Source: Escherichia coli
GTDB lineage: Bacteria > Pseudomonadota > Gammaproteobacteria > Enterobacterales > Enterobacteriaceae
Assembly (NCBI RefSeq): GCF_024502345.1
Contig: NZ_JALDNN010000001.1
Reading direction: 5' to 3' (one strand)
Length of the DNA: 64,000 nucleotides
The notes beneath the pieces are model-generated. The model saw only the letters and a program-made list of their open reading frames with translations, made no database searches and had not been told where the DNA came from. The stretch's first letter is position 1. Every line of letters begins with the position of its first letter. The translations under genes were made by a program, and so were the position numbers. Of the stretch, positions 7,240 to 60,648 are shown in pieces.

Positions 7240-8337
7240 ATGAAAGGACGTTGGGTAAAGTACCTTCTTATGGGCACGGTTGTGGCAATGCTTGCCGCCT
7301 GCTCTTCCAAACCAACCGATCGCGGACAGCAATATAAAGACGGGAAATTTACCCAGCCTTTCTCTCTGGTGAACCAGCCAGATGCCGTTGGCGCGCCGAT
7401 TAACGCCGGTGATTTTGCCGAGCAAATTAACCATATCCGTAATTCGTCACCGCGTCTGTATGGCAACCAGAGTAATGTTTATAACGCGGTGCAAGAGTGG
7501 CTGCGCGCAGGCGGTGATACCCGCAATATGCGCCAGTTCGGCATTGATGCCTGGCAGATGGAAGGTGCCGACAACTATGGTAACGTGCAGTTTACAGGCT
7601 ATTACACGCCGGTAATTCAGGCGCGCCATACCCGCCATGGCGAGTTCCAGTATCCTATTTACCGTATGCCGCCAAAACGTGGTCGTCTGCCGTCTCGTGC
7701 GGAGATCTACGCGGGGGCATTGGGCGATAAATACATCCTCGCTTACAGCAACTCTCTGATGGATAACTTCATTATGGATGTGCAGGGTAGTGGGTATATC
7801 GACTTTGGTGATGGCAGTCCGCTTAACTTTTTCAGCTATGCAGGGAAAAACGGTCATGCCTATCGCAGCATTGGTAAGGTGCTGATCGACCGTGGCGAAG
7901 TGAAAAAAGAAGATATGTCGATGCAGGCGATTCGTCATTGGGGCGAAACACACAGTGAAGCCGAGGTTCGCGAGCTGCTGGAACAGAACCCGTCTTTCGT
8001 CTTCTTTAAACCGCAATCTTTTGCACCGGTGAAAGGGGCAAGTGCGGTGCCGCTGGTTGGCCGTGCTTCTGTTGCCTCCGATCGTTCAATTATTCCGCCA
8101 GGTACTACCTTGCTGGCAGAAGTGCCGCTGCTGGATAATAACGGCAAATTTAACGGTCAGTACGAATTGCGTCTGATGGTGGCGTTGGATGTCGGGGGCG
8201 CAATCAAAGGCCAACACTTCGATATCTATCAAGGGATCGGGCCGGAAGCCGGACACCGCGCAGGTTGGTACAACCACTATGGACGTGTCTGGGTGCTGAA
8301 AACCGCCCCGGGCGCAGGTAACGTCTTTAGCGGCTGA
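7240..8337 (+). CDS. mltA: Membrane-bound lytic murein transglycosylase A (365 aa, lipoprotein)
   Basis: ORF 7141..8337; start set at MKGRWVKYLLMGTVVAMLAACSS (lipobox LAAC); MltA recognised. Confidence 0.9.
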   Translation: MKGRWVKYLLMGTVVAMLAACSSKPTDRGQQYKDGKFTQPFSLVNQPDAVGAPINAGDFAEQINHIRNSSPRLYGNQSNVYNAVQEWLRAGGDTRNMRQFGIDAWQMEGADNYGNVQFTGYYTPVIQARHTRHGEFQYPIYRMPPKRGRLPSRAEIYAGALGDKYILAYSNSLMDNFIMDVQGSGYIDFGDGSPLNFFSYAGKNGHAYRSIGKVLIDRGEVKKEDMSMQAIRHWGETHSEAEVRELLEQNPSFVFFKPQSFAPVKGASAVPLVGRASVASDRSIIPPGTTLLAEVPLLDNNGKFNGQYELRLMVALDVGGAIKGQHFDIYQGIGPEAGHRAGWYNHYGRVWVLKTAPGAGNVFSG

Positions 8338-50009: not shown

Positions 50010-50832
50010 GTGTTCCCCGCGCCAGCGGGGATAAACCGCGCGATTTGTTAGCGCCCGTTGCGCCTGGTGGGTGTTCCCCGCGCCAGCGGGGATAAACCGC
50101 GCGAGTTCGTGCGCATGGGGCGCATTTTTGGCGTGTTCCCCGCGCCAGCGGGGATAAACCGCGGCGTTCATGCCCTCCAGCACTGTTACGCGGGTGTTCC
50201 CCGCGCCAGCGGGGATAAACCGTAGTCAAGCGGTAATTCATCGCCTGCAGATCCGAGTTCCCCGCGCCAGCGGGGATAAACCGGCTAATTTACGTAATTT
50301 ACGTGCTATTGCACTGAGTTCCCCGCGCCAGCGGGGATAAACCGTGGGTCATGCCGGTGATCGCCTGCCCGTCGTGGAGTTCCCCGCGCCAGCGGGGATA
50401 AACCATCACCACCGCTTGTCATAAAATTAGCGTCATAGAGTTCCCCGCGCCAGCGGGGATAAACCGGGGAGTGGCACTTCTGGGGTAGCGGCGGCCCTGA
50501 GTTCCCCGCGCCAGCGGGGATAAACCGTCAACGCGCTCAGACGTTGCGTGAGTGAACCAGAGTTCCCCGCGCCAGCGGGGATAAACCGAAATATCCAGGG
50601 CTGGGCTGGAGGCAGACGGCGAGTTCCCCGCGCCAGCGGGGATAAACCGGCGTTGATGTTCTTGCGGGTGTTGCAAATATTGAGTTCCCCGCGCCAGCGG
50701 GGATAAACCGTTTCAGCAGTTCAGCGTAACACCGACGGTCACGAGTTCCCCGCGCCAGCGGGGATAAACCGCCCGGAATGCATTCTGAAGGTTTGCTGTA
50801 TATGAGTTCCCCGCGCCAGCGGGGATAAACCA
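50010..50832 (+). CRISPR. Type I-E CRISPR array: 14 repeats of 29 bp, 13 spacers (32-33 bp)
   Basis: Repeat GAGTTCCCCGCGCCAGCGGGGATAAACCG at strict 61-62 bp periodicity from 50010 to 50804; the first 3 repeats carry a GTG variant, and repeats 7 and 14 end in A. Confidence 0.97.
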
Positions 50833-51470: not shown

Positions 51471-52949
51471 TCACGCATTCGACCAGCTCTGGATCGAATC
51501 CACATTCCCCAATTCCCCATGCATCACTTCATACGATTTTTTCAGGATCACATCAGTATGTTTGGTTAGGTCTTTGAAAATGCCTTTATTCATCGCGTCG
51601 TAGCGTTTGGCATTGCTCTCAATCGGTATAAAGATATCTTTCACGCGAACCATCTTATCAACAGCCGTTGCGTAATCCGGGTATAGCCCCAGACCTACCG
51701 CTGTATTAATCGCTGCTCCCAGACTTGCACAACCGTTAATGGCGTTACGGCGTGCCGGAAGGTTGAACACGTCGGCAAAAATTTGCATAAACAGATCGCT
51801 GTTCGAACCGCCGCCAGTAATGATCACATGCTTCGCAAAGTGATTCATTTCATTACACATATTGTCGTAATTGTTCTTCAGCGTTAGCGCCACGCTTTCC
51901 AATATCGAACGATATATCCATGCGTAATCCATGCTGGAATCAAAGCCGATCATAATCCCGCGTTTGTACGGTTCCCACGGATTGGTCAGCCAGTCCAGCA
52001 CCGTCATCAGCCCATTACAGCCAGGTGGCACACTAGAGGCTTTCTTGTTGAGTAAATCTTCCGGTGAAAGATCCTGCGCCCTGGCATCCTGAATTAACGA
52101 CTCGCCTAACATGTCACGCAGCCAGCTCACCGTCCACATACCTTTGCGAATACCGTAACCTTCATACAGCAATGTTTGCGGAATAGAAGACATAATCGGC
52201 CAGTACGCCACCGGATCTTTCGGCAGTGCTTTGCCGTTCATCATCAATGCGATGTAAGTGCCAAGAGAAATTACCGCAGTTTCATCATCCAGTAATCCGG
52301 CCCCCAGAGCTTCTACCGGTTTATCACTGGTGGTACAAACAACCGGCAGTCCTGCCGGGAAATGTGTCGCCAGTGCGGCTTGTGGTGTGATATGTCCGAG
52401 GACGGTGCCAGGCATTTGCACATCAAACAGCATATGACGGGGGATATTAAACTTATCCATTACCGCAGCATCTTCGCTCCATGCCCAGCTCTTATAATCC
52501 ACCGGCCACTGACCAAAATAGTTGGCGATATTGTCTTTAAACTCGCCGGTTAAGCGATGCGTCAGATAACCCGAAAAAGAGGTGACATACGCCACGTCAG
52601 GATTCGTATGTTCGTAAGGGCGTGTAACGCGTGCATCCTGCCAGCTAATCAACGGCGCAGCTGGCGTGCCGTCGGCTTTCAATAACGCACGGCAGCAACG
52701 GATGGAGCCCAGGCCGATGCCAACAATATCTTCTTTATTCCCGGCAAACTGGCTCATCAAATCGTGACCTGCAAAACATAATGATGCCCATAAATCGTCG
52801 TCAGGATGTTCTGCAGTATCGGCATAAGGCGTGTGCATCGGCTGTAATAAGCCTTTACCTTCGCAAACCACATTACCTTCCAGATCGTACATCACCACTT
52901 TTGTGCTCTGACTTCCGCCATCAATCCCTATGATGTATTTTTTCGACAT
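51471..52949 (-). CDS. ygcE: FGGY-family carbohydrate kinase YgcE (492 aa)
   Basis: 492-aa ORF MSKKYIIGIDGGSQSTKVVMYD... with actin-like ATPase motifs. Confidence 0.85.
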   Translation of the reverse strand: MSKKYIIGIDGGSQSTKVVMYDLEGNVVCEGKGLLQPMHTPYADTAEHPDDDLWASLCFAGHDLMSQFAGNKEDIVGIGLGSIRCCRALLKADGTPAAPLISWQDARVTRPYEHTNPDVAYVTSFSGYLTHRLTGEFKDNIANYFGQWPVDYKSWAWSEDAAVMDKFNIPRHMLFDVQMPGTVLGHITPQAALATHFPAGLPVVCTTSDKPVEALGAGLLDDETAVISLGTYIALMMNGKALPKDPVAYWPIMSSIPQTLLYEGYGIRKGMWTVSWLRDMLGESLIQDARAQDLSPEDLLNKKASSVPPGCNGLMTVLDWLTNPWEPYKRGIMIGFDSSMDYAWIYRSILESVALTLKNNYDNMCNEMNHFAKHVIITGGGSNSDLFMQIFADVFNLPARRNAINGCASLGAAINTAVGLGLYPDYATAVDKMVRVKDIFIPIESNAKRYDAMNKGIFKDLTKHTDVILKKSYEVMHGELGNVDSIQSWSNA

Positions 52950-52975
52950 GATTTTTCTCCTGTAATTTTCCTGGC

Positions 52976-54253
52976 TTACTTGCTGCTAGCCATTGCGGGG
53001 GCGCTATCAGCAGTACGAATTTTTTGGAACAGCAAAAAGGTAAAGACAATCACCATGGCAAGCGCCGCCATTCCCATCAGCCACATATTGCGGTAGGCTT
53101 CTGCTGCGGGCAGGGTGTCTTGCCAGTGGCCGATAATCGGGTAAACGAAGACATCCGGCAGGAATCCAATCACCGAACAAATACCTACCGTGGTGCCCAT
53201 AATGTAAGACGGTGTTCTCGCTTCGCCAGGGCAGGCCCAGTACAGCCCGCGTGAGGCGTAACAGGTGAATCCCAGCAGTAAAATCAGGCCAATCCCCATC
53301 GCGACCGATTGCGGGTTAGAGTTCGTGACGAGCAGGGCAGTTAACGCCAGCAGGTCGAGTACGGAAAGGATTTGGATCACGCGGGTAGGGGATTTCACTT
53401 TACTGTAGGTGGTGATAATGCCGCCAAGTGGGCCGCACAGCGCGCGGAAGATTTTGTTGATCACAATCCCCATGTAGCTCGCTGCCACCAGCGACATGCC
53501 GTACATTTCGGTCAGATAGTTGGTGGAGTAACTCAGAATGGCGTAGATTGTGAAGACACCAAAAATCACCATGCTGCAATACCAGGTGGTGCTGATACGC
53601 AAAACGGCAAGGATGTCGCTAAGCTGGAATGACTGTTTTTCTTCGTTATTGGCACTGCGCAGGTTGTTGTTATCGCTAACAAAAAACCAGCACAGAATCC
53701 CCAACAAGATGTAAACCACACTGTAGATGATAATGACTGTTTTCAGGCTGGCGCTGTCATCCGGTGCAAAGCGAGAAAAGACCCACATGGTAAACACCGC
53801 CAGCGACATTACACCGACGCCGCGCAGCCCTTCCATCCAGCCCATAATTTTCCCTTGCTCACTATGATCGCCCAGCAACGAGGCGGCTTTAATCGACACC
53901 GACCACAGCATTAAAATCGTCGTTATCGCAAAGGCGACCTGAATACAGAGCATTACCCACAGCGGTGGATACGTTGCCATTAACAGACCCAGTAATCCGG
54001 TAATGATCATCGCGGAAGTAATCATTTTGCGGTGTGAAAATTTATCGGCAATAACGCCGCTGGGGGCATAAAGAATAATAGCCGCAATACCAAAGGTACT
54101 CATTATTAAACCTATCTCGGTATTGCTGAATCCCATAAATTTCGCCATGGGAATTTGATAAATATAACGTAAATAAGCCAGGTCAAAACTAACGCCGCCG
54201 CTAAAACTAATTATCGCGAGGGTTATCCAACGGCGATATGAGTTGTGTTGCAT
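52976..54253 (-). CDS. yqcE: MFS transporter YqcE (425 aa)
   Basis: 425-aa 12-TM-like ORF directly upstream of ygcE on the same strand. Confidence 0.8.
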   Translation of the reverse strand: MQHNSYRRWITLAIISFSGGVSFDLAYLRYIYQIPMAKFMGFSNTEIGLIMSTFGIAAIILYAPSGVIADKFSHRKMITSAMIITGLLGLLMATYPPLWVMLCIQVAFAITTILMLWSVSIKAASLLGDHSEQGKIMGWMEGLRGVGVMSLAVFTMWVFSRFAPDDSASLKTVIIIYSVVYILLGILCWFFVSDNNNLRSANNEEKQSFQLSDILAVLRISTTWYCSMVIFGVFTIYAILSYSTNYLTEMYGMSLVAASYMGIVINKIFRALCGPLGGIITTYSKVKSPTRVIQILSVLDLLALTALLVTNSNPQSVAMGIGLILLLGFTCYASRGLYWACPGEARTPSYIMGTTVGICSVIGFLPDVFVYPIIGHWQDTLPAAEAYRNMWLMGMAALAMVIVFTFLLFQKIRTADSAPAMASSK

Positions 54254-54431
54254 ATCGTATTCCCATTTGTAATAGAAAAAAAAAAGAGAAAAGTAAGCCG
54301 CCCTTTCAGGTGGATTACTTTTCTCAGGTCTCTAGTAATTGCAATAAGAAATAACATGGAAAGCAGAGGTGTTGTGTGAGAGTAATCACGCTTCTGCTTT
54401 TTAAAACTATTTGACAATACGAATATCACAC

Positions 54432-54447
54432 TGTGATTACGATCACA
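54432..54447. promoter_or_regulatory. Consensus CRP site in the yqcE / ygcW divergent intergenic region
   Basis: TGTGA-ttacga-TCACA, perfect match to both half-sites. Confidence 0.6.
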
Positions 54448-54498
54448 TTAGCAGTTATGCCGTTATGCTAAAAATTATCTCCAGTTACCAGAGATAAT

Positions 54499-54547
54499 GA
54501 GAAAGGTAACTTCCCTCTCGCGGGGGAAGTTACCTTTCTTTTTTTTT
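54499..54547 (+). terminator. Strong intrinsic-terminator-like hairpin in the ygcW leader (candidate attenuator)
   Basis: Perfect 16-bp stem agaaaggtaacttccc/gggaagttacctttct, loop tctcgcg, then a T9 run; ends 25 bp before the ygcW ATG. Confidence 0.7.
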
Positions 54548-54571
54548 GCCTTACGGAAATTGGAGCTAACT

Positions 54572-55357
54572 ATGTCAATCGAATCTCTCAATGCGTTCTC
54601 AATGGATTTTTTCTCACTGAAAGGTAAAACCGCAATTGTTACCGGTGGGAATAGCGGTTTAGGCCAGGCATTTGCCATGGCGTTGGCCAAAGCTGGCGCA
54701 AATATCTTTATTCCTAGTTTCGTCAAAGATAACGGCGAAACAAAGGAAATGATTGAAAAACAGGGTGTTGAGGTGGACTTCATGCAGGTGGATATCACCG
54801 CAGAAGGCGCGCCGCAGAAGATTATCGCTGCTTGCTGTGAGCGTTTCGGTACAGTTGATATTCTGGTAAACAATGCCGGTATTTGTAAGCTGAATAAGGT
54901 GCTGGACTTCGGTCGTGCCGACTGGGATCCGATGATTGATGTGAACCTGACCGCCGCATTCGAGTTAAGCTATGAAGCGGCAAAAATTATGATCCCGCAG
55001 AAAAGCGGCAAAATTATTAATATCTGTTCATTGTTCTCTTACTTAGGTGGACAATGGTCACCTGCATATTCTGCCACTAAACATGCTCTTGCCGGATTCA
55101 CCAAAGCTTATTGTGATGAACTAGGTCAATATAATATTCAGGTAAATGGTATTGCCCCTGGCTATTATGCAACAGATATTACGCTGGCGACACGCAGTAA
55201 TCCAGAAACCAATCAGCGCGTTCTTGATCATATTCCGGCAAACCGTTGGGGCGATACTCAGGATTTAATGGGCGCAGCTGTATTCCTCGCAAGTCCGGCT
55301 TCAAATTATGTCAATGGGCATTTATTAGTGGTCGATGGTGGTTATTTAGTGCGCTAA
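54572..55357 (+). CDS. ygcW: Short-chain dehydrogenase/reductase YgcW (261 aa)
   Basis: ORF 54497..55357; start set at MSIESLNAF after a GGAG RBS; SDR motif TGGNSGLG. Confidence 0.85.
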   Translation: MSIESLNAFSMDFFSLKGKTAIVTGGNSGLGQAFAMALAKAGANIFIPSFVKDNGETKEMIEKQGVEVDFMQVDITAEGAPQKIIAACCERFGTVDILVNNAGICKLNKVLDFGRADWDPMIDVNLTAAFELSYEAAKIMIPQKSGKIINICSLFSYLGGQWSPAYSATKHALAGFTKAYCDELGQYNIQVNGIAPGYYATDITLATRSNPETNQRVLDHIPANRWGDTQDLMGAAVFLASPASNYVNGHLLVVDGGYLVR

Positions 55358-55426
55358 TCCATAACGGTGGTTTCTGTTTTCTCTTATTAATGATTATTCC
55401 ATTTTTATTATCAGGAAGGAATTACT

Positions 55427-56881
55427 ATGTCTTTATCTCGCGCAGCGATTGTCGACCAACTAAAGGAAATTGTTGGTGCAGATCGCGTAATTACCGATGA
55501 AACAGTATTAAAGAAGAACAGTATTGACCGTTTTCGTAAATTTCCGGATATTCATGGCATTTATACTTTGCCGATTCCGGCAGCGGTCGTAAAACTCGGT
55601 TCCACAGAGCAAGTATCCCGTGTGCTGAATTTTATGAATGCGCACAAAATTAACGGTGTGCCGCGTACCGGTGCTTCCGCCACCGAAGGTGGGCTGGAAA
55701 CTGTTGTAGAAAACTCGGTGGTGCTCGACGGTTCCGCCATGAATCAAATCATTAATATTGATATTGAGAATATGCAGGCGACGGCGCAATGTGGCGTTCC
55801 CCTGGAAGTGCTGGAAAATGCGTTGCGTGAAAAAGGTTACACCACGGGGCATTCTCCGCAGTCAAAGCCGCTGGCGCAGATGGGCGGCCTGGTAGCAACC
55901 CGCAGTATCGGGCAGTTCTCCACACTCTACGGCGCAATCGAAGATATGGTCGTTGGTCTGGAGGCAGTGTTGGCAGATGGCACCGTCACACGCATTAAAA
56001 ACGTGCCACGCCGCGCGGCTGGCCCGGACATTCGTCACATCATCATCGGCAACGAAGGTGCATTGTGCTATATCACTGAAGTAACAGTGAAAATCTTTAA
56101 ATTCACCCCGGAAAACAACCTCTTCTACGGCTATATCCTGGAAGACATGAAAACCGGCTTCAACATCCTGCGTGAAATCATGGTGGAAGGGTATCGTCCG
56201 TCGATCGCTCGTTTGTATGACGCTGAAGATGGCACCCAACACTTCACCCATTTTGCCGACGGTAAATGTGTGCTGATCTTTATGGCTGAAGGCAATCCTC
56301 GCATTGCGAAGGCGACGGGCGAAGGGATTGCGGAAATCGTTGCCCGCTACCCGCAGTGCCAGCGCGTGGACAGCAAACTGATCGAAACCTGGTTTAACAA
56401 CCTGAACTGGGGACCGGATAAAGTGGCTGCCGAACGTGTGCAGATCCTCAAAACCGGCAACATGGGCTTTACCACTGAAGTGTCCGGCTGCTGGAGCTGC
56501 ATCCACGAAATCTACGAAAGCGTTATTAACCGTATTCGTACTGAGTTCCCGCACGCCGACGACATCACCATGCTGGGCGGTCACTCCTCTCATAGCTATC
56601 ATAACGGCACCAACATGTACTTCGTCTACGATTACAACGTCGTTGACTGTAAGCCGGAAGAGGAAATCGACAAGTACCACAATCCGCTCAACAAGATCAT
56701 CTGTGAAGAAACCATTCGCCTCGGCGGTTCGATGGTGCACCACCACGGTATCGGTAAACATCGCGTTCACTGGAGCAAACTGGAACACGGCAGCGCGTGG
56801 GCGTTGCTGGAAGGGCTGAAAAAGCAGTTCGATCCTAATGGCATTATGAATACGGGTACTATCTATCCGATTGAAAAATAA
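55427..56881 (+). CDS. ygcU: FAD-linked oxidoreductase YgcU (GlcD/vanillyl-alcohol-oxidase superfamily, 484 aa)
   Basis: 484-aa ORF with FAD-binding PCMH-type domain features. Confidence 0.8.
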   Translation: MSLSRAAIVDQLKEIVGADRVITDETVLKKNSIDRFRKFPDIHGIYTLPIPAAVVKLGSTEQVSRVLNFMNAHKINGVPRTGASATEGGLETVVENSVVLDGSAMNQIINIDIENMQATAQCGVPLEVLENALREKGYTTGHSPQSKPLAQMGGLVATRSIGQFSTLYGAIEDMVVGLEAVLADGTVTRIKNVPRRAAGPDIRHIIIGNEGALCYITEVTVKIFKFTPENNLFYGYILEDMKTGFNILREIMVEGYRPSIARLYDAEDGTQHFTHFADGKCVLIFMAEGNPRIAKATGEGIAEIVARYPQCQRVDSKLIETWFNNLNWGPDKVAAERVQILKTGNMGFTTEVSGCWSCIHEIYESVINRIRTEFPHADDITMLGGHSSHSYHNGTNMYFVYDYNVVDCKPEEEIDKYHNPLNKIICEETIRLGGSMVHHHGIGKHRVHWSKLEHGSAWALLEGLKKQFDPNGIMNTGTIYPIEK

Positions 56882-56974
56882 TGTGTCAGGCAGCGTTCCG
56901 CGATGACGGGGCGTTGCCTTTTCGGCTTCTCAGGCGAGAAGCCGTTCTTATTACCGGACAATGAAGGGGTAAAG

Positions 56975-58312
56975 ATGAACACTTCACCGGTGCGAATGGA
57001 TGATTTACCGCTTAACCGTTTTCACTGCCGCATTGCTGCGCTCACTTTCGGCGCACACCTGACCGACGGTTATGTTCTCGGCGTCATTGGTTACGCCATT
57101 ATTCAGCTTACGCCCGCCATGCAACTGACGCCGTTTATGGCGGGAATGATCGGCGGCTCGGCGCTCCTTGGTTTGTTTCTTGGCAGCCTGGTTCTTGGGT
57201 GGATCTCCGACCATATTGGTCGGCAAAAAATCTTCACCTTCAGCTTTTTGCTGATTACGCTCGCTTCGTTCTTGCAATTTTTTGCCACCACGCCAGAGCA
57301 TCTTATTGGGCTGCGCATTTTGATCGGCATTGGGCTGGGAGGCGATTACTCAGTTGGTCACACCTTGCTGGCTGAATTTTCCCCGCGCCGCCATCGCGGT
57401 ATTTTGCTGGGCGCATTCAGCGTGGTGTGGACCGTAGGTTATGTGCTGGCAAGTATTGCCGGACATCACTTTATTTCCGAAAACCCGGAGGCCTGGCGCT
57501 GGCTGCTGGCATCGGCAGCTCTGCCCGCATTGTTGATTACGTTATTACGCTGGGGAACGCCAGAATCGCCACGCTGGCTACTGCGCCAGGGGCGTTTTGC
57601 AGAAGCTCACGCTATCGTGCATCGCTATTTTGGTCCCCATGTTTTACTGGGCGATGAAGTGGCAACGGCGACCCATAAACACATCAAAACCTTGTTCTCT
57701 TCGCGCTACTGGCGGCGTACGGCGTTTAACAGCGTCTTCTTTGTCTGCCTCGTAATTCCATGGTTTGTGATTTATACCTGGCTGCCAACTATCGCCCAGA
57801 CTATTGGACTGGAAGATGCGCTGACTGCCAGCCTGATGCTTAATGCGTTGTTAATTGTGGGCGCGCTGCTGGGATTAGTTCTGACGCACCTGCTGGCACA
57901 TCGCAAGTTTTTGCTGGGAAGTTTTTTGCTGCTGGCGGCAACGCTGGTAGTGATGGCCTGTTTGCCTTCCGGCAGTTCATTAACGCTACTGCTTTTTGTT
58001 CTCTTCAGCACCACCATTTCGGCAGTCAGTAATCTGGTGGGCATTTTGCCTGCGGAAAGTTTTCCTACTGACATTCGCTCGCTGGGCGTCGGTTTTGCCA
58101 CCGCCATGAGTCGGTTGGGGGCGGCGGTAAGTACTGGCCTGCTGCCGTGGGTGCTGGCGCAGTGGGGAATGCAAGTTACCTTATTGATCCTGGCGGCAGT
58201 GTTGTTAGTTGGTTTTGTCGTGACCTGGCTATGGGCACCAGAAACCAAAGCACTCCCGCTGGTGGCGGCGGGAAATGTAGGAGGTGCGAATGAACATTCT
58301 GTTAGCGTTTAA
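56975..58312 (+). CDS. ygcS: MFS sugar-porter-like transporter YgcS (445 aa)
   Basis: ORF 56903..58312; start set at MNTSPVRMDDLPLNRF; sugar-porter-like motifs. Confidence 0.8.
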   Translation: MNTSPVRMDDLPLNRFHCRIAALTFGAHLTDGYVLGVIGYAIIQLTPAMQLTPFMAGMIGGSALLGLFLGSLVLGWISDHIGRQKIFTFSFLLITLASFLQFFATTPEHLIGLRILIGIGLGGDYSVGHTLLAEFSPRRHRGILLGAFSVVWTVGYVLASIAGHHFISENPEAWRWLLASAALPALLITLLRWGTPESPRWLLRQGRFAEAHAIVHRYFGPHVLLGDEVATATHKHIKTLFSSRYWRRTAFNSVFFVCLVIPWFVIYTWLPTIAQTIGLEDALTASLMLNALLIVGALLGLVLTHLLAHRKFLLGSFLLLAATLVVMACLPSGSSLTLLLFVLFSTTISAVSNLVGILPAESFPTDIRSLGVGFATAMSRLGAAVSTGLLPWVLAQWGMQVTLLILAAVLLVGFVVTWLWAPETKALPLVAAGNVGGANEHSVSV

Positions 58313-59069
58313 AGCCGAACCGGATGCCGGAATGCTGGCGGAAAAAGAGTGGCAGGCGGCGGCTCAGGGTAATAGCGGACCGGATGTTTCGCTACTGCGA
58401 AGTTTACTCGGTGCTGATGAACAGGCTGCCGCCGCGCTGCTGTTGGCGCAGATAAAAAACGGTACGCCGATGTCTTTAACCGCGTTGAGCATGGGGGATG
58501 AACGGGCGTTACACTGGCTGCGCTATCTCATGGCTCTTGGGTTTGAGGAAGCTGTATTGCTGGAGACGGCGGCAGATCTGCGCTTTGCACCGGAATTTGT
58601 CGCTCGCCATATTGCCGAATGGCAGCGTCAGAATCCGCTGGATCTGATAATTACCGGCTGCCAAAGCAGCGAAGGGCAGAATTGGCAAACGCCATTTTTG
58701 CTGGCGGAAATGCTGGGCTGGCCCTGCTTCACCCAGGTGGAGCGTTTCACTCTCGACGCGCCGTTTATCACCCTCGAACAGCGTACTGAACATGGGTTGC
58801 GTTGTTGCCGGGTTCGCTTGCCTGCGGTGATTGCCGTGCGCCAGTGTGGTGAAGTGGCCTTGCCAGTACCGGGAATGCGCCAGCGAATGGCTGCGGGGAA
58901 AGCGGAAATTATCCGTAAAACTGTTGCTGCCGAATTGCCAGCGATGCAGTGTCTGCAACTGGCAAGAGCAGAGCAACGACGCGGAGCGACGCTGATTGAT
59001 GGGAAAACGGTAGCAGAAAAAGCGCAAAAGCTATGGCAGGACTATTTACGCCAAAGGATGCAGCCATGA
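58290..59069 (+). CDS. ygcR: Electron transfer flavoprotein beta-subunit-like protein YgcR (FixA-like)
   Basis: 259-aa ORF overlapping the ygcS 3' end; ETF-beta-like. Confidence 0.75.
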   Translation: MNILLAFKAEPDAGMLAEKEWQAAAQGNSGPDVSLLRSLLGADEQAAAALLLAQIKNGTPMSLTALSMGDERALHWLRYLMALGFEEAVLLETAADLRFAPEFVARHIAEWQRQNPLDLIITGCQSSEGQNWQTPFLLAEMLGWPCFTQVERFTLDAPFITLEQRTEHGLRCCRVRLPAVIAVRQCGEVALPVPGMRQRMAAGKAEIIRKTVAAELPAMQCLQLARAEQRRGATLIDGKTVAEKAQKLWQDYLRQRMQP

Positions 59070-59926
59070 ATATCGCAATTGTGACAATAAATCAGGAGAA
59101 TGCCGCATTAGCGGGCTGGCTGGCGGCGCAGGATTTCAGCGGTTGTACCCTGGCGCACTGGCAAATAGAACCACAGCCCGTAGTGGTGGAACAGGTGCTG
59201 GATGCGCTGGTGGAACAGTGGAAGCGAACGCCTACGGACGTTGTTCTCTTTCCGCAGGGAACGTTTGGCGATGAACTGTCGACCCGGCTGGCCTGGCGTT
59301 TACATGGTGCAAGCATCTGCCAGGTGACTTCGTTAGATATTCCAACCGTAAGCGTGCGCAAATCCCACTGGGGAAATGCGCTAACGGCGACGCTGCAAAC
59401 AGAAAAACGCCCGCTATGCCTTTCCCTGGCGCGTCAGGCGGGAGCAGAGAAAAACGCCACGTTGCCCTCTGGTATGCAGCAACTGAACATTGTCCCAGGT
59501 GCGCTTCCCGACTGGCTGGTTAGCATAGAGAATCTGAAAAATGTTAGCCGCGACCCATTAGCTGAAGCCAGACGGGTGCTGGTGGTGGGGCAGGGCGGAG
59601 AGGCAGATAACCAGGAAATCGCTATGCTGGCAGAAAAGCTGGGAGCCGAAGTGGGCTACAGTCGGGCGCGAGTGATGAACGGTGGCGTTGATGCTGAAAA
59701 AGTGATTGGTATTTCCGGACATCTGCTGGCACCTGAGGTGTGTATTGTTGTTGGCGCTTCTGGCGCAGCAGCGTTAATGGCGGGCGTACGCAATAGCAAG
59801 TTTGTGGTGGCGATTAATCATGACGCCAGCGCAGCGGTATTTTCACAGGCAGATGTTGGCGTGGTTGATGACTGGAAAGTGGTGCTGGAGGCACTGGTGA
59901 CAAACATTGACGCAGAATGCCAATAA
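59066..59926 (+). CDS. ygcQ: Electron transfer flavoprotein alpha-subunit-like protein YgcQ (FixB-like, 286 aa)
   Basis: ORF 59033..59926; start set at MNIAIVTINQ, overlapping the ygcR stop (ATGA). Confidence 0.75.
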   Translation: MNIAIVTINQENAALAGWLAAQDFSGCTLAHWQIEPQPVVVEQVLDALVEQWKRTPTDVVLFPQGTFGDELSTRLAWRLHGASICQVTSLDIPTVSVRKSHWGNALTATLQTEKRPLCLSLARQAGAEKNATLPSGMQQLNIVPGALPDWLVSIENLKNVSRDPLAEARRVLVVGQGGEADNQEIAMLAEKLGAEVGYSRARVMNGGVDAEKVIGISGHLLAPEVCIVVGASGAAALMAGVRNSKFVVAINHDASAAVFSQADVGVVDDWKVVLEALVTNIDAECQ

Positions 59927-59970
59927 CGTGCTGCCGGATGATCCTGCCTACGGTTCTGGACTGGGGACCT

Positions 59971-60007
59971 GTAGGCCTGATAAGACGCGTTAAGCGTCGC
60001 ATCAGGC
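59971..60007. repeat. REP element between convergent ygcQ and ygcP
   Basis: gtaggcctgataagacgcgttaagcgtcgcatcaggc. Confidence 0.75.
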
Positions 60008-60072
60008 GCTGAAGGTCGGATGTGGCATGCAGCCTACAAATCACACAAATTCAATTCGTTACGATTATCCCG

Positions 60073-60648
60073 TCAAAGCAATTTTTTAGCTAACGTCCAG
60101 ACTCCGGTATTCGTGGTGGAAAGCGCCACGACACCCGCGTTAATCGCATTACGCGCATTTTCTTCATCGCATACCAGCCCGCCAGCAATCAGCGGTTGAC
60201 GGATTTTCTCCGTCACCCAGCCCAGCACTTTGGGCATACAGCCAGGCAGGATCTCAATACAATCCGGATTCGATTGCGCAACTTGCTTATCAATGTTGTG
60301 AAACGAAATTGAATCAACAATAAACAGGCGATGAATACAGAAAAAACCTTCCGCTCTTGCCGCTTTCAGCATTGAGGCTTTGGTACTGATAATTCCGTCC
60401 GCCTCGGTCACCAGTTTCAAAAACTGAATCACGACTTCTTTATTTGACGCGCCTTCCAGCAAATCAACATGAATAAAAGCATATTTCCCGGCGTTCTTAA
60501 TCTTTTTAACGATATTACTGATGGTGCAGATATTGCCGTACAACACGGAAATAAACTGGCATTCAGAGTCGATTGCCAGTTGCAGGCTGGCATTATCTTT
60601 AACGGCAGCAATCACCGGATTCTGGCGGAGCAGGTGTAAGAGGGGCAT
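60073..60648 (-). CDS. ygcP: GlpP-family putative RNA-binding antiterminator YgcP (191 aa)
   Basis: 191-aa ORF recognised as belonging to the glycerol-3-phosphate responsive antiterminator (GlpP) family. Confidence 0.75.
   Translation of the reverse strand: MPLLHLLRQNPVIAAVKDNASLQLAIDSECQFISVLYGNICTISNIVKKIKNAGKYAFIHVDLLEGASNKEVVIQFLKLVTEADGIISTKASMLKAARAEGFFCIHRLFIVDSISFHNIDKQVAQSNPDCIEILPGCMPKVLGWVTEKIRQPLIAGGLVCDEENARNAINAGVVALSTTNTGVWTLAKKLL

Follow-up and report, generated by a model that had tools for sequence, protein, structure and literature searches.

Protein-mediated antitermination switches are few in E. coli, BglG being the classic example. In the RAT-terminator leaders of BglG in E. 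coli and of SacY and LicT in B. subtilis, the protein stabilizes a small hairpin sharing sequence with the 5′ arm of a terminator. B. subtilis also has GlpP, which together with glycerol-3-phosphate relieves terminators in the leaders of glpD, glpFK and glpTQ. The glpD 5′ UTR alone renders foreign promoters glycerol-inducible, and this property is lost in a glpP deletion (PMC9604022). In the glpD leader, GGUCCUGAGAUGAGGAGAGACC precedes a 26-bp terminator and a U-run. The small hairpin of this leader (GGUC.../...GACC, with the loop GAGAUGAGG) has as its 3′ strand the start of the terminator 5′ arm.

The ygc cluster is one of the gene blocks of E. coli whose function remains unassigned, and our literature searches for ygcP, ygcW and the short RNAs ecr2774/ecr2775 returned no functional study. 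Here we analyze this cluster in a 64-kb stretch of E. coli DNA (the window), where ygcE and yqcE lie on the minus strand, ygcW-U-S-R-Q on the plus strand and ygcP-O-N on the minus strand, the whole being inverted with respect to K-12 (Table 1). The genes ygcW to ygcQ are close-set or overlapping and presumably form a single operon. The initial annotation of this DNA had assigned YgcP to the GlpP family; the protein is indeed a full-length match to PF04309 (E = 4.3e-62) with no further domain, and its closest solved structures, 3KTS and 1VKF, are both ‘glycerol uptake operon antiterminator’ proteins. The same annotation had proposed that a hairpin ahead of ygcW serves as a ligand-responsive attenuator.

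Other repeated or structured elements of the region are a short CRISPR array between queE and ygcE (50196-50404, 3.4 copies with a period of 61, repeat GTTCCCCGCGCCAGCGGGGATAAACCG), annotated by RefSeq at the matching place in K-12, and a 9-bp G+C-rich hairpin, CGGCTTCTCAGGCGAGAAGCCG, just within the ygcS start (56923-56944) and lacking a proper T-run. The convergent ygcQ-ygcP spacer (59930-60010) contains GCCGGATG...GCCTGATAAGACGCG...CGTCGCATCAGGC, which we take to resemble the REP/BIME palindromic consensus.

Table 1. Positions in the window of the operons, leader elements and regulatory sites of the ygc cluster
Feature	Position	Strand	Description
Operon 2	51471..54253	-	yqcE (MFS transporter), ygcE (FGGY sugar kinase)
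yqcE-leader intrinsic terminator	54276..54325	-	stem 54325-54286, imperfect, 15/17 positions paired; U10 54285-54276
Candidate antiterminator hairpin, yqcE leader	54314..54339	-	AUUACU 54339-54334 pairs with AGUAAU 54319-54314; loop AGAGACCUGAGAAA
Predicted extended -10, yqcE promoter	54348..54356	-	TGtTATTTC; ecr2775 5′ end a few nt downstream
Second CRP-like site	54375..54390		CGTGATTACTCTCACA (- strand sequence); 9/10 core bases; class-II distance from yqcE leader start
Perfect CRP site	54432..54447		TGTGAttacgaTCACA; centre 43.5 nt 5′ of the A in AGUUACC; at class-II spacing from predicted start
Predicted extended -10, ygcW promoter	54466..54474	+	TGcTAAAAA; predicted start ~54481-54484
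Candidate antiterminator hairpin, ygcW leader	54483..54511	+	AGUUACC 54483-54489 pairs with GGUAACU 54505-54511
ygcW-leader intrinsic terminator	54499..54547	+	19-bp stem 54499-54517/54522-54540, 4-nt loop, U-run to 54547
Operon 1	54572..59926	+	ygcW (SDR), ygcU (FAD oxidase), ygcS (MFS), ygcR and ygcQ (ETF subunits)
ygcP, proposed antiterminator	60073..60648	-	GlpP-family (G3P_antiterm); RefSeq name

The ygcW leader contains a perfect 16-bp inverted repeat, AGAAAGGTAACTTCCC at 54500-54515 and its exact reverse complement GGGAAGTTACCTTTCT at 54524-54539, followed by a T9 run (54539-54547) whose first T doubles as the last base of the stem. A terminator scan counted 19 pairs including wobble, 8 of them G-C, in the hairpin at 54499-54540 and ranked it as the top candidate within 14 kb, while terminator-like sites overall numbered 25 against 17.6 +/- 4 expected, which is not a clear enrichment. 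For the hairpin RNA the folding energy is -32 kcal/mol (z = -5.4), a stability reached by none of 200 shuffles, and the fold of the full leader gives -34.2 kcal/mol for the terminator. Because its T-run is confined to the plus strand, the element is directed at ygcW. Hairpin and U-run together, with RNA 3′ ends at or near the U-runs, are those of an intrinsic (Rho-independent) terminator. Only 24 nt (54548-54571) separate the T-run from the ygcW ATG at 54572, and the GGAG Shine-Dalgarno sequence lies within them (54562-54565). Thus both the perfect 16-bp stem with its T9 run and the lack of room for a promoter between hairpin and gene, as initially annotated, hold at this locus. Of the 5063 E. 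coli genomes carrying the 72-nt leader, 4525 have it at 99 % identity or more.

The start of ygcW at 54572 (261 aa) matches that of RefSeq K-12. An in-frame ATG at 54497, inside the hairpin and unconserved in other genera, opens a spurious ORF at 54497-55357 of 286 aa with 25 additional codons; it could nevertheless mislead automated annotation of the ygcW start. A leader peptide beginning at this ATG was likewise rejected, because other genera have AAG, CTG, ACG or GGG at this place. The region is missing altogether from about 360 of the 5426 complete E. coli genomes, and in E. coli PK8277 IS1 copies truncate ygcE, yqcE and ygcP, ygcW-ygcQ are lost and 44 nt of the intergenic region are left.

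The divergent yqcE leader, absent from the initial annotation, has its own hairpin on the minus strand followed by a T10 run. This hairpin folds at -23.8 kcal/mol (z = -4.05), and 22 nt lead from the end of its U10 to the yqcE ATG at 54253. Aligned over 90 nt, the two leaders agree at about 60 % of positions, and they have in common the motif TTACYAGAGA...TGAGAAARGTAA...TTACYTTTCT plus a T-run, found twice in the window versus zero occurrences expected. By scanning genomes with a YgcP query we obtained 64 loci; leaders were gathered with nhmmer, and a covariance model, R1, was then built from 96 aligned leaders. Within the 64-kb window R1 matches the ygcW leader (54462-54561, plus strand, 93 bits) and the yqcE leader (54265-54360, minus strand, 92 bits) and nothing else. 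A third leader ahead of ygcNOP was considered and rejected: the queD-ygcN gap is only ~50-70 nt and has neither a hairpin nor an R1 match. A scan of 53800-55000 against Rfam 15 (E up to 10) gave only chance matches, the best scoring 22 bits against a threshold of 80.

R1 located exactly two divergent leaders per source in 50 Enterobacterales sources, one of which is the window. The 96 distinct enterobacterial leaders have terminators of -19 to -33.5 kcal/mol with stems of 16-21 bp and T-runs of 6-9; 92 % of their stem cells are paired, and covariation exceeds that of all 500 shuffles and of all slid controls. The long perfect palindrome of the ygcW stem would suit an element acting at the DNA level, either a REP-like repeat or an operator for a DNA-binding regulator; the following observations speak against this. 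The element occurs at a median of 2 and a maximum of 4 places per E. coli genome, none of them dispersed as would be required of REP/BIME sequences, and its U-run is on a single strand. The many G-U pairs of the leader stems would be mismatches in DNA and A-C mismatches on the other strand, which argues for selection on the sense RNA. Upper-stem sequence is free to vary between genera while pairing is kept, and the ygc cluster encodes no DNA-binding regulator (nor any PTS component). We therefore consider action at the DNA level extremely improbable and treat both hairpins as RNA terminators.

Short RNAs from both leaders are already on record. The ‘potential novel sRNAs’ of Romero et al. 2014 include two that lie between ygcW and yqcE and that the authors classed as simple stem-loops, ‘perhaps REP-like’ (PMC4681348): ecr2774, of 73 nt on the ygcW strand (2898315-2898388; PMC4681348 Table S5), and ecr2775, of 63 nt on the yqcE strand and confirmed by northern blot (2898527-2898590; PMC4681348). 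We transferred their coordinates to the window via the ygcW start and the position of the CRP site. The 5′ ends then fall at ~54484 for ecr2774 and ~54345 for ecr2775, 139 nt apart and a few nt from the predicted transcription starts; by the same transfer the 3′ end of ecr2775 lies inside its U-run and that of ecr2774 ~10 nt beyond the U-run. ecr2774 and ecr2775 are the terminated ygcW and yqcE leaders. A short terminated ygcW transcript, which had been suggested as the experiment to perform, was thus already published as ecr2774, and its 5′ end lies upstream of the hairpin rather than downstream of it. From an in vitro run-off array study comes a weak hint at most, an intergenic probe upstream of yqcE being among the differentially transcribed ones.

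Their listing as potential novel sRNAs, together with an abundance sufficient for northern blot, would also fit free-standing trans-acting sRNAs, with terminators that just end sRNA genes and with ygcW and yqcE expressed by leakage or other signals and without YgcP. We judge this very unlikely. The 24 and 22 nt to the start codons leave no space for a separate promoter, the elements stand always directly upstream of the same gene families, across gene orders and phyla, and a plain sRNA would have no use for the conserved competing helix described below. The leaders may, however, serve both in cis and in trans.

The ygcW/yqcE intergenic region measures 318 bp and appears to hold a promoter for each leader. 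In the aligned leaders a TGnTA stands at a constant 17 nt before AGTTAC, and this fixed spacing is as expected for an extended -10 element whose transcripts begin just ahead of AGUUAC. Two CRP sites, absent from the initial annotation, accompany these elements (Table 1). The perfect one is known, with an in vitro Kd of ~1.7 nM (PMC12871828), and had been predicted earlier by PhyloScan (PMC1794230); yqcE-ygcE is among the Crp-activated units (PMC8085971). Every locus has at least one near-perfect CRP site 41.5-44.5 nt from one leader, and the CRP-site geometry of the yqcE leader is also kept in other genera. A promoter scan flagged neither the ygcW nor the yqcE promoter, which we attribute to the replacement of their -35 regions by CRP sites.

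An alternative structure competing with the terminator, which the initial annotation had left to be looked for by RNA folding, is present in both leaders: an AGUUACY/RGUAACU helix that folds and covaries. In the ygcW leader it closes a loop of 15 nt, AGAGAUAAUGAGAAA (54490-54504), with an invariant GAG...GAGAAA, and the candidate antiterminator shares 54499-54511 with the terminator 5′ arm. RGUAACU forms the middle of this arm, so that its pairing with the upstream AGUUACY is predicted to exclude the terminator. The nascent 34-nt ygcW RNA adopts the candidate hairpin in 72 % of its ensemble (-6.2 kcal/mol), while the yqcE counterpart, at -1.4 kcal/mol, is weak by itself and on par with shuffled sequence; these values of -6.2 and -1.4 kcal/mol stand against -34 and -21 kcal/mol for the respective terminators. 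The helix is present in 93 of the 96 nascent-RNA folds.

Several positions of the alternative helix have changed on both strands. Pair 25-55 is G-C in 68 leaders, A-U in 27 and unpaired in 1, and pair 30-50 is U-A in 67, C-G in 25 and unpaired in 4. At pair 28-52 an A-U has become G-C in one locus (L028) and again, independently, in Listeria and Bacillus, and the yqcE helix carries a compensatory G-C to A-U change relative to other genera. These compensatory changes amount to about four independent events, the leaders being closely related, so that the shuffle control overstates the significance. Counts were taken from alignment A2, the model-based alignment A4 and a regex count; the MAFFT alignment A3, and likewise alignment A5, was set aside because rows with a 3-nt insertion were misplaced in it. 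Column 55 is unpaired with its terminator partner in 62 of the 96 leaders and yet paired in the alternative helix, which argues that this helix is selected in its own right. The loop blocks GAG and GAGAAA, spaced by 4-9 nt, are invariant in the aligned leaders. As the first GAG block is explained by neither helix, we take it as a likely protein contact.

In the enterobacterial loci the leader pair always lies between ygcW(-ygcU) and yqcE(-ygcE), and in Serratia, Pantoea and Erwinia it is kept despite a rearranged cluster without ETF genes. Beyond this order, a leader was found in Thalassobacillus beside a YgcP homologue and ygcW/ygcE/ygcU-like genes, a twin divergent pair in Vibrio hannami and two copies in Clostridium sediminicola, the latter two likewise beside a YgcP homologue and ygc-like genes. 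Listeria species and Bacillus sp. DNRA2 gave only weak R1 matches (E 0.025-0.21), with the variant helix GUUGCU/AGCGAC, and these too adjoin a YgcP homologue and ygc-like genes. YgcP homologues outside the Enterobacterales are 54-59 % identical, and across differing gene orders one lies within 10 kb of every leader found. This joint occurrence in distant groups indicates that regulator, RNA and catabolic genes travel together across phyla. In five loci from Firmicutes and a Vibrio, YgcW is 70-77 %, YgcU 62-67 % and YgcP 55-59 % identical to the E. coli proteins, levels of identity that suggest horizontal transfer of the whole ygc module. In Listeria, ygcP is inside the leader-controlled operon.

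Enterobacterial loci without a clean leader pair are, with one exception and one separate case, contigs ending before the ygcW/yqcE junction. The exception, Serratia microhaemolytica, has a lone ygcP homologue at 7431-8000 (70 % identical), with no ygc catabolic genes or leader motif within 7-10 kb on either side of it. The separate case is Limnobaculum eriocheiris (L033, 13865-13973), where a spacer of just ~70 nt between ygcW and yqcE contains a single A9/T9-flanked hairpin and no promoter-bearing pair; in a sister species (L034) both leaders are present and their hairpins are identical. The single hairpin of L. eriocheiris looks like a deletion through recombination between twin hairpins, or an assembly collapse.

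The close association of leader and YgcP homologue also bears on whether the conditional terminators might respond to something other than YgcP, be it a metabolite bound by a small riboswitch, another factor, or nothing at all in a constitutive attenuator that dampens CRP-driven transcription. Like riboswitch cores, the element shows high sequence conservation, and the binding of YgcP to the leader is something that we infer. Still, its invariant part is a loop of ~15 nt on a helix of 6-7 bp, which leaves little room for a ligand pocket; it has no match in Rfam; all instances have the YgcP homologue within 10 kb; and the sole characterized relative of YgcP acts on such leaders. A switch other than YgcP therefore seems unlikely to us, though less so than either of the two alternatives weighed above.

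We consider it probable that the ygc leaders combine CRP-activated promoters and default termination with a ligand-triggered antitermination by YgcP at both leaders, in which the binding of YgcP and its need for a ligand are the conjectural parts. In such a mechanism, the two divergent promoters, each with a CRP site and an extended -10 element, would fire when glucose is absent. Each would yield a leader of ~65 nt that ends by default at the terminator just before the Shine-Dalgarno sequence, giving ecr2774 and ecr2775. The small hairpin would take up the initial 29 nt of each leader, its loop showing GAG and GAGAAA. Ligand-bound YgcP would bind and stabilize this 5′ hairpin as the RNA leaves RNA polymerase. 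This would keep the 13 lower terminator pairs from forming and allow read-through into ygcWUSRQ and yqcE-ygcE. The attenuation switch proposed in the initial annotation is thereby supported and extended to a second leader, with YgcP in a presumptive role.

What YgcP senses may be guessed from the genes under its putative control. None of these is a glp gene; their products are an SDR, an FGGY kinase, an FAD oxidase together with ETF partners, and MFS transporters, and glycerol-3-phosphate may accordingly not be the ligand. The YgcE kinase is conserved with the module, which points to its phosphorylated product. By analogy with GlpK, which makes glycerol-3-phosphate for GlpP, a reasonable guess is that this product would be the ligand of YgcP.

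We put at about even the chances of a wider reading, in which YgcP and the twin leaders would constitute a self-contained, horizontally mobile module of Clostridia, Bacilli, Vibrio and Enterobacterales, made of a regulator, its RNA target and a catabolic cluster for a polyol or sugar. All of the following would then hold jointly: Proteobacteria would have in this module their first example of GlpP-type antitermination, its signal would be the phosphorylated YgcE product instead of glycerol-3-phosphate, and proteins of the GlpP family would recognize RNA through the GAG...GAGAAA loop.

If ecr2774 and ecr2775 are taken for attenuators under YgcP control, regulation of the cluster acquires a logic that can be tested, in which CRP acts together with an antiterminator loaded with inducer. 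Read-through of the 65-nt leader offers a simple reporter for finding the ygc substrate. The alignment of ~100 leaders delimits a compact, conserved RNA element, usable to work out RNA recognition by the GlpP family. The leader element could also act as a portable switch, as that of glpD does in B. subtilis (PMC9604022).

Compared with the described antiterminators, the ygc leaders resemble those of BglG, from what is established about that system, in that each is the leader of a CRP-dependent catabolic operon with a hairpin overlapping the terminator 5′ arm. The proteins differ: in the BglG family RNA is bound by a CAT domain and PTS regulation acts on PRD domains, while YgcP is a single PF04309 domain. 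A likeness of another kind is to HutP and TRAP, which read spaced NAG/GAG triplets, as the ygc leader loops carry spaced invariant GAG blocks; one report describes HutP as recognizing XAG-rich sites (PMC2425495). YgcP might read its GAG blocks in a comparable way. However, the folds of HutP and TRAP are unrelated to that of YgcP, and TRAP promotes termination instead of preventing it. In the literature examined we found no description of how GlpP-family proteins recognize RNA.

The closest relative remains GlpP and the glpD leader, and the ygc locus presents three features of a GlpP-type leader: a PF04309 protein encoded with the genes it would control, a terminator in the 5′ UTR and a mutually exclusive alternative structure upstream. 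Both regulators are PF04309 proteins, both systems have a promoter, a short leader and a terminator just before the ribosome-binding site, and both join catabolite control, through CcpA for GlpP in B. subtilis and through CRP in E. coli. The glpD leader and the ygcW and yqcE leaders have the same hairpin-over-terminator layout, and the glpD loop is purine-rich (GAGAUGAGGAGA), with GAGA/GAG seen by eye. The comparison covered one proven GlpP target, glpD; a metagenome scan for its leader gave a single 3.7-kb glpK-glpD contig, which does not include the glpFK leader. The helix sequences differ, GGUC/GACC in glpD versus GUUACY/RGUAAC in the E. coli leaders, and R1 matches the B. subtilis glpD leader at the correct place with a marginal 19 bits (E ~0.08). 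Since this sequence similarity is marginal, we class the E. coli leaders as GlpP/glpD-like in their working, a sister target class and not demonstrated homologues. The initially drawn analogy to the glpD leader is borne out in layout, the likeness being mainly architectural. Unlike GlpP and glpD, the ygc system resides in a Gram-negative host and sets two leaders back to back around CRP sites. While the kind of mechanism is known, this member of it appears to be undescribed, with its twin layout, its conserved RNA motif and its spread, together with a non-glycerol cluster, into Gram-negatives.
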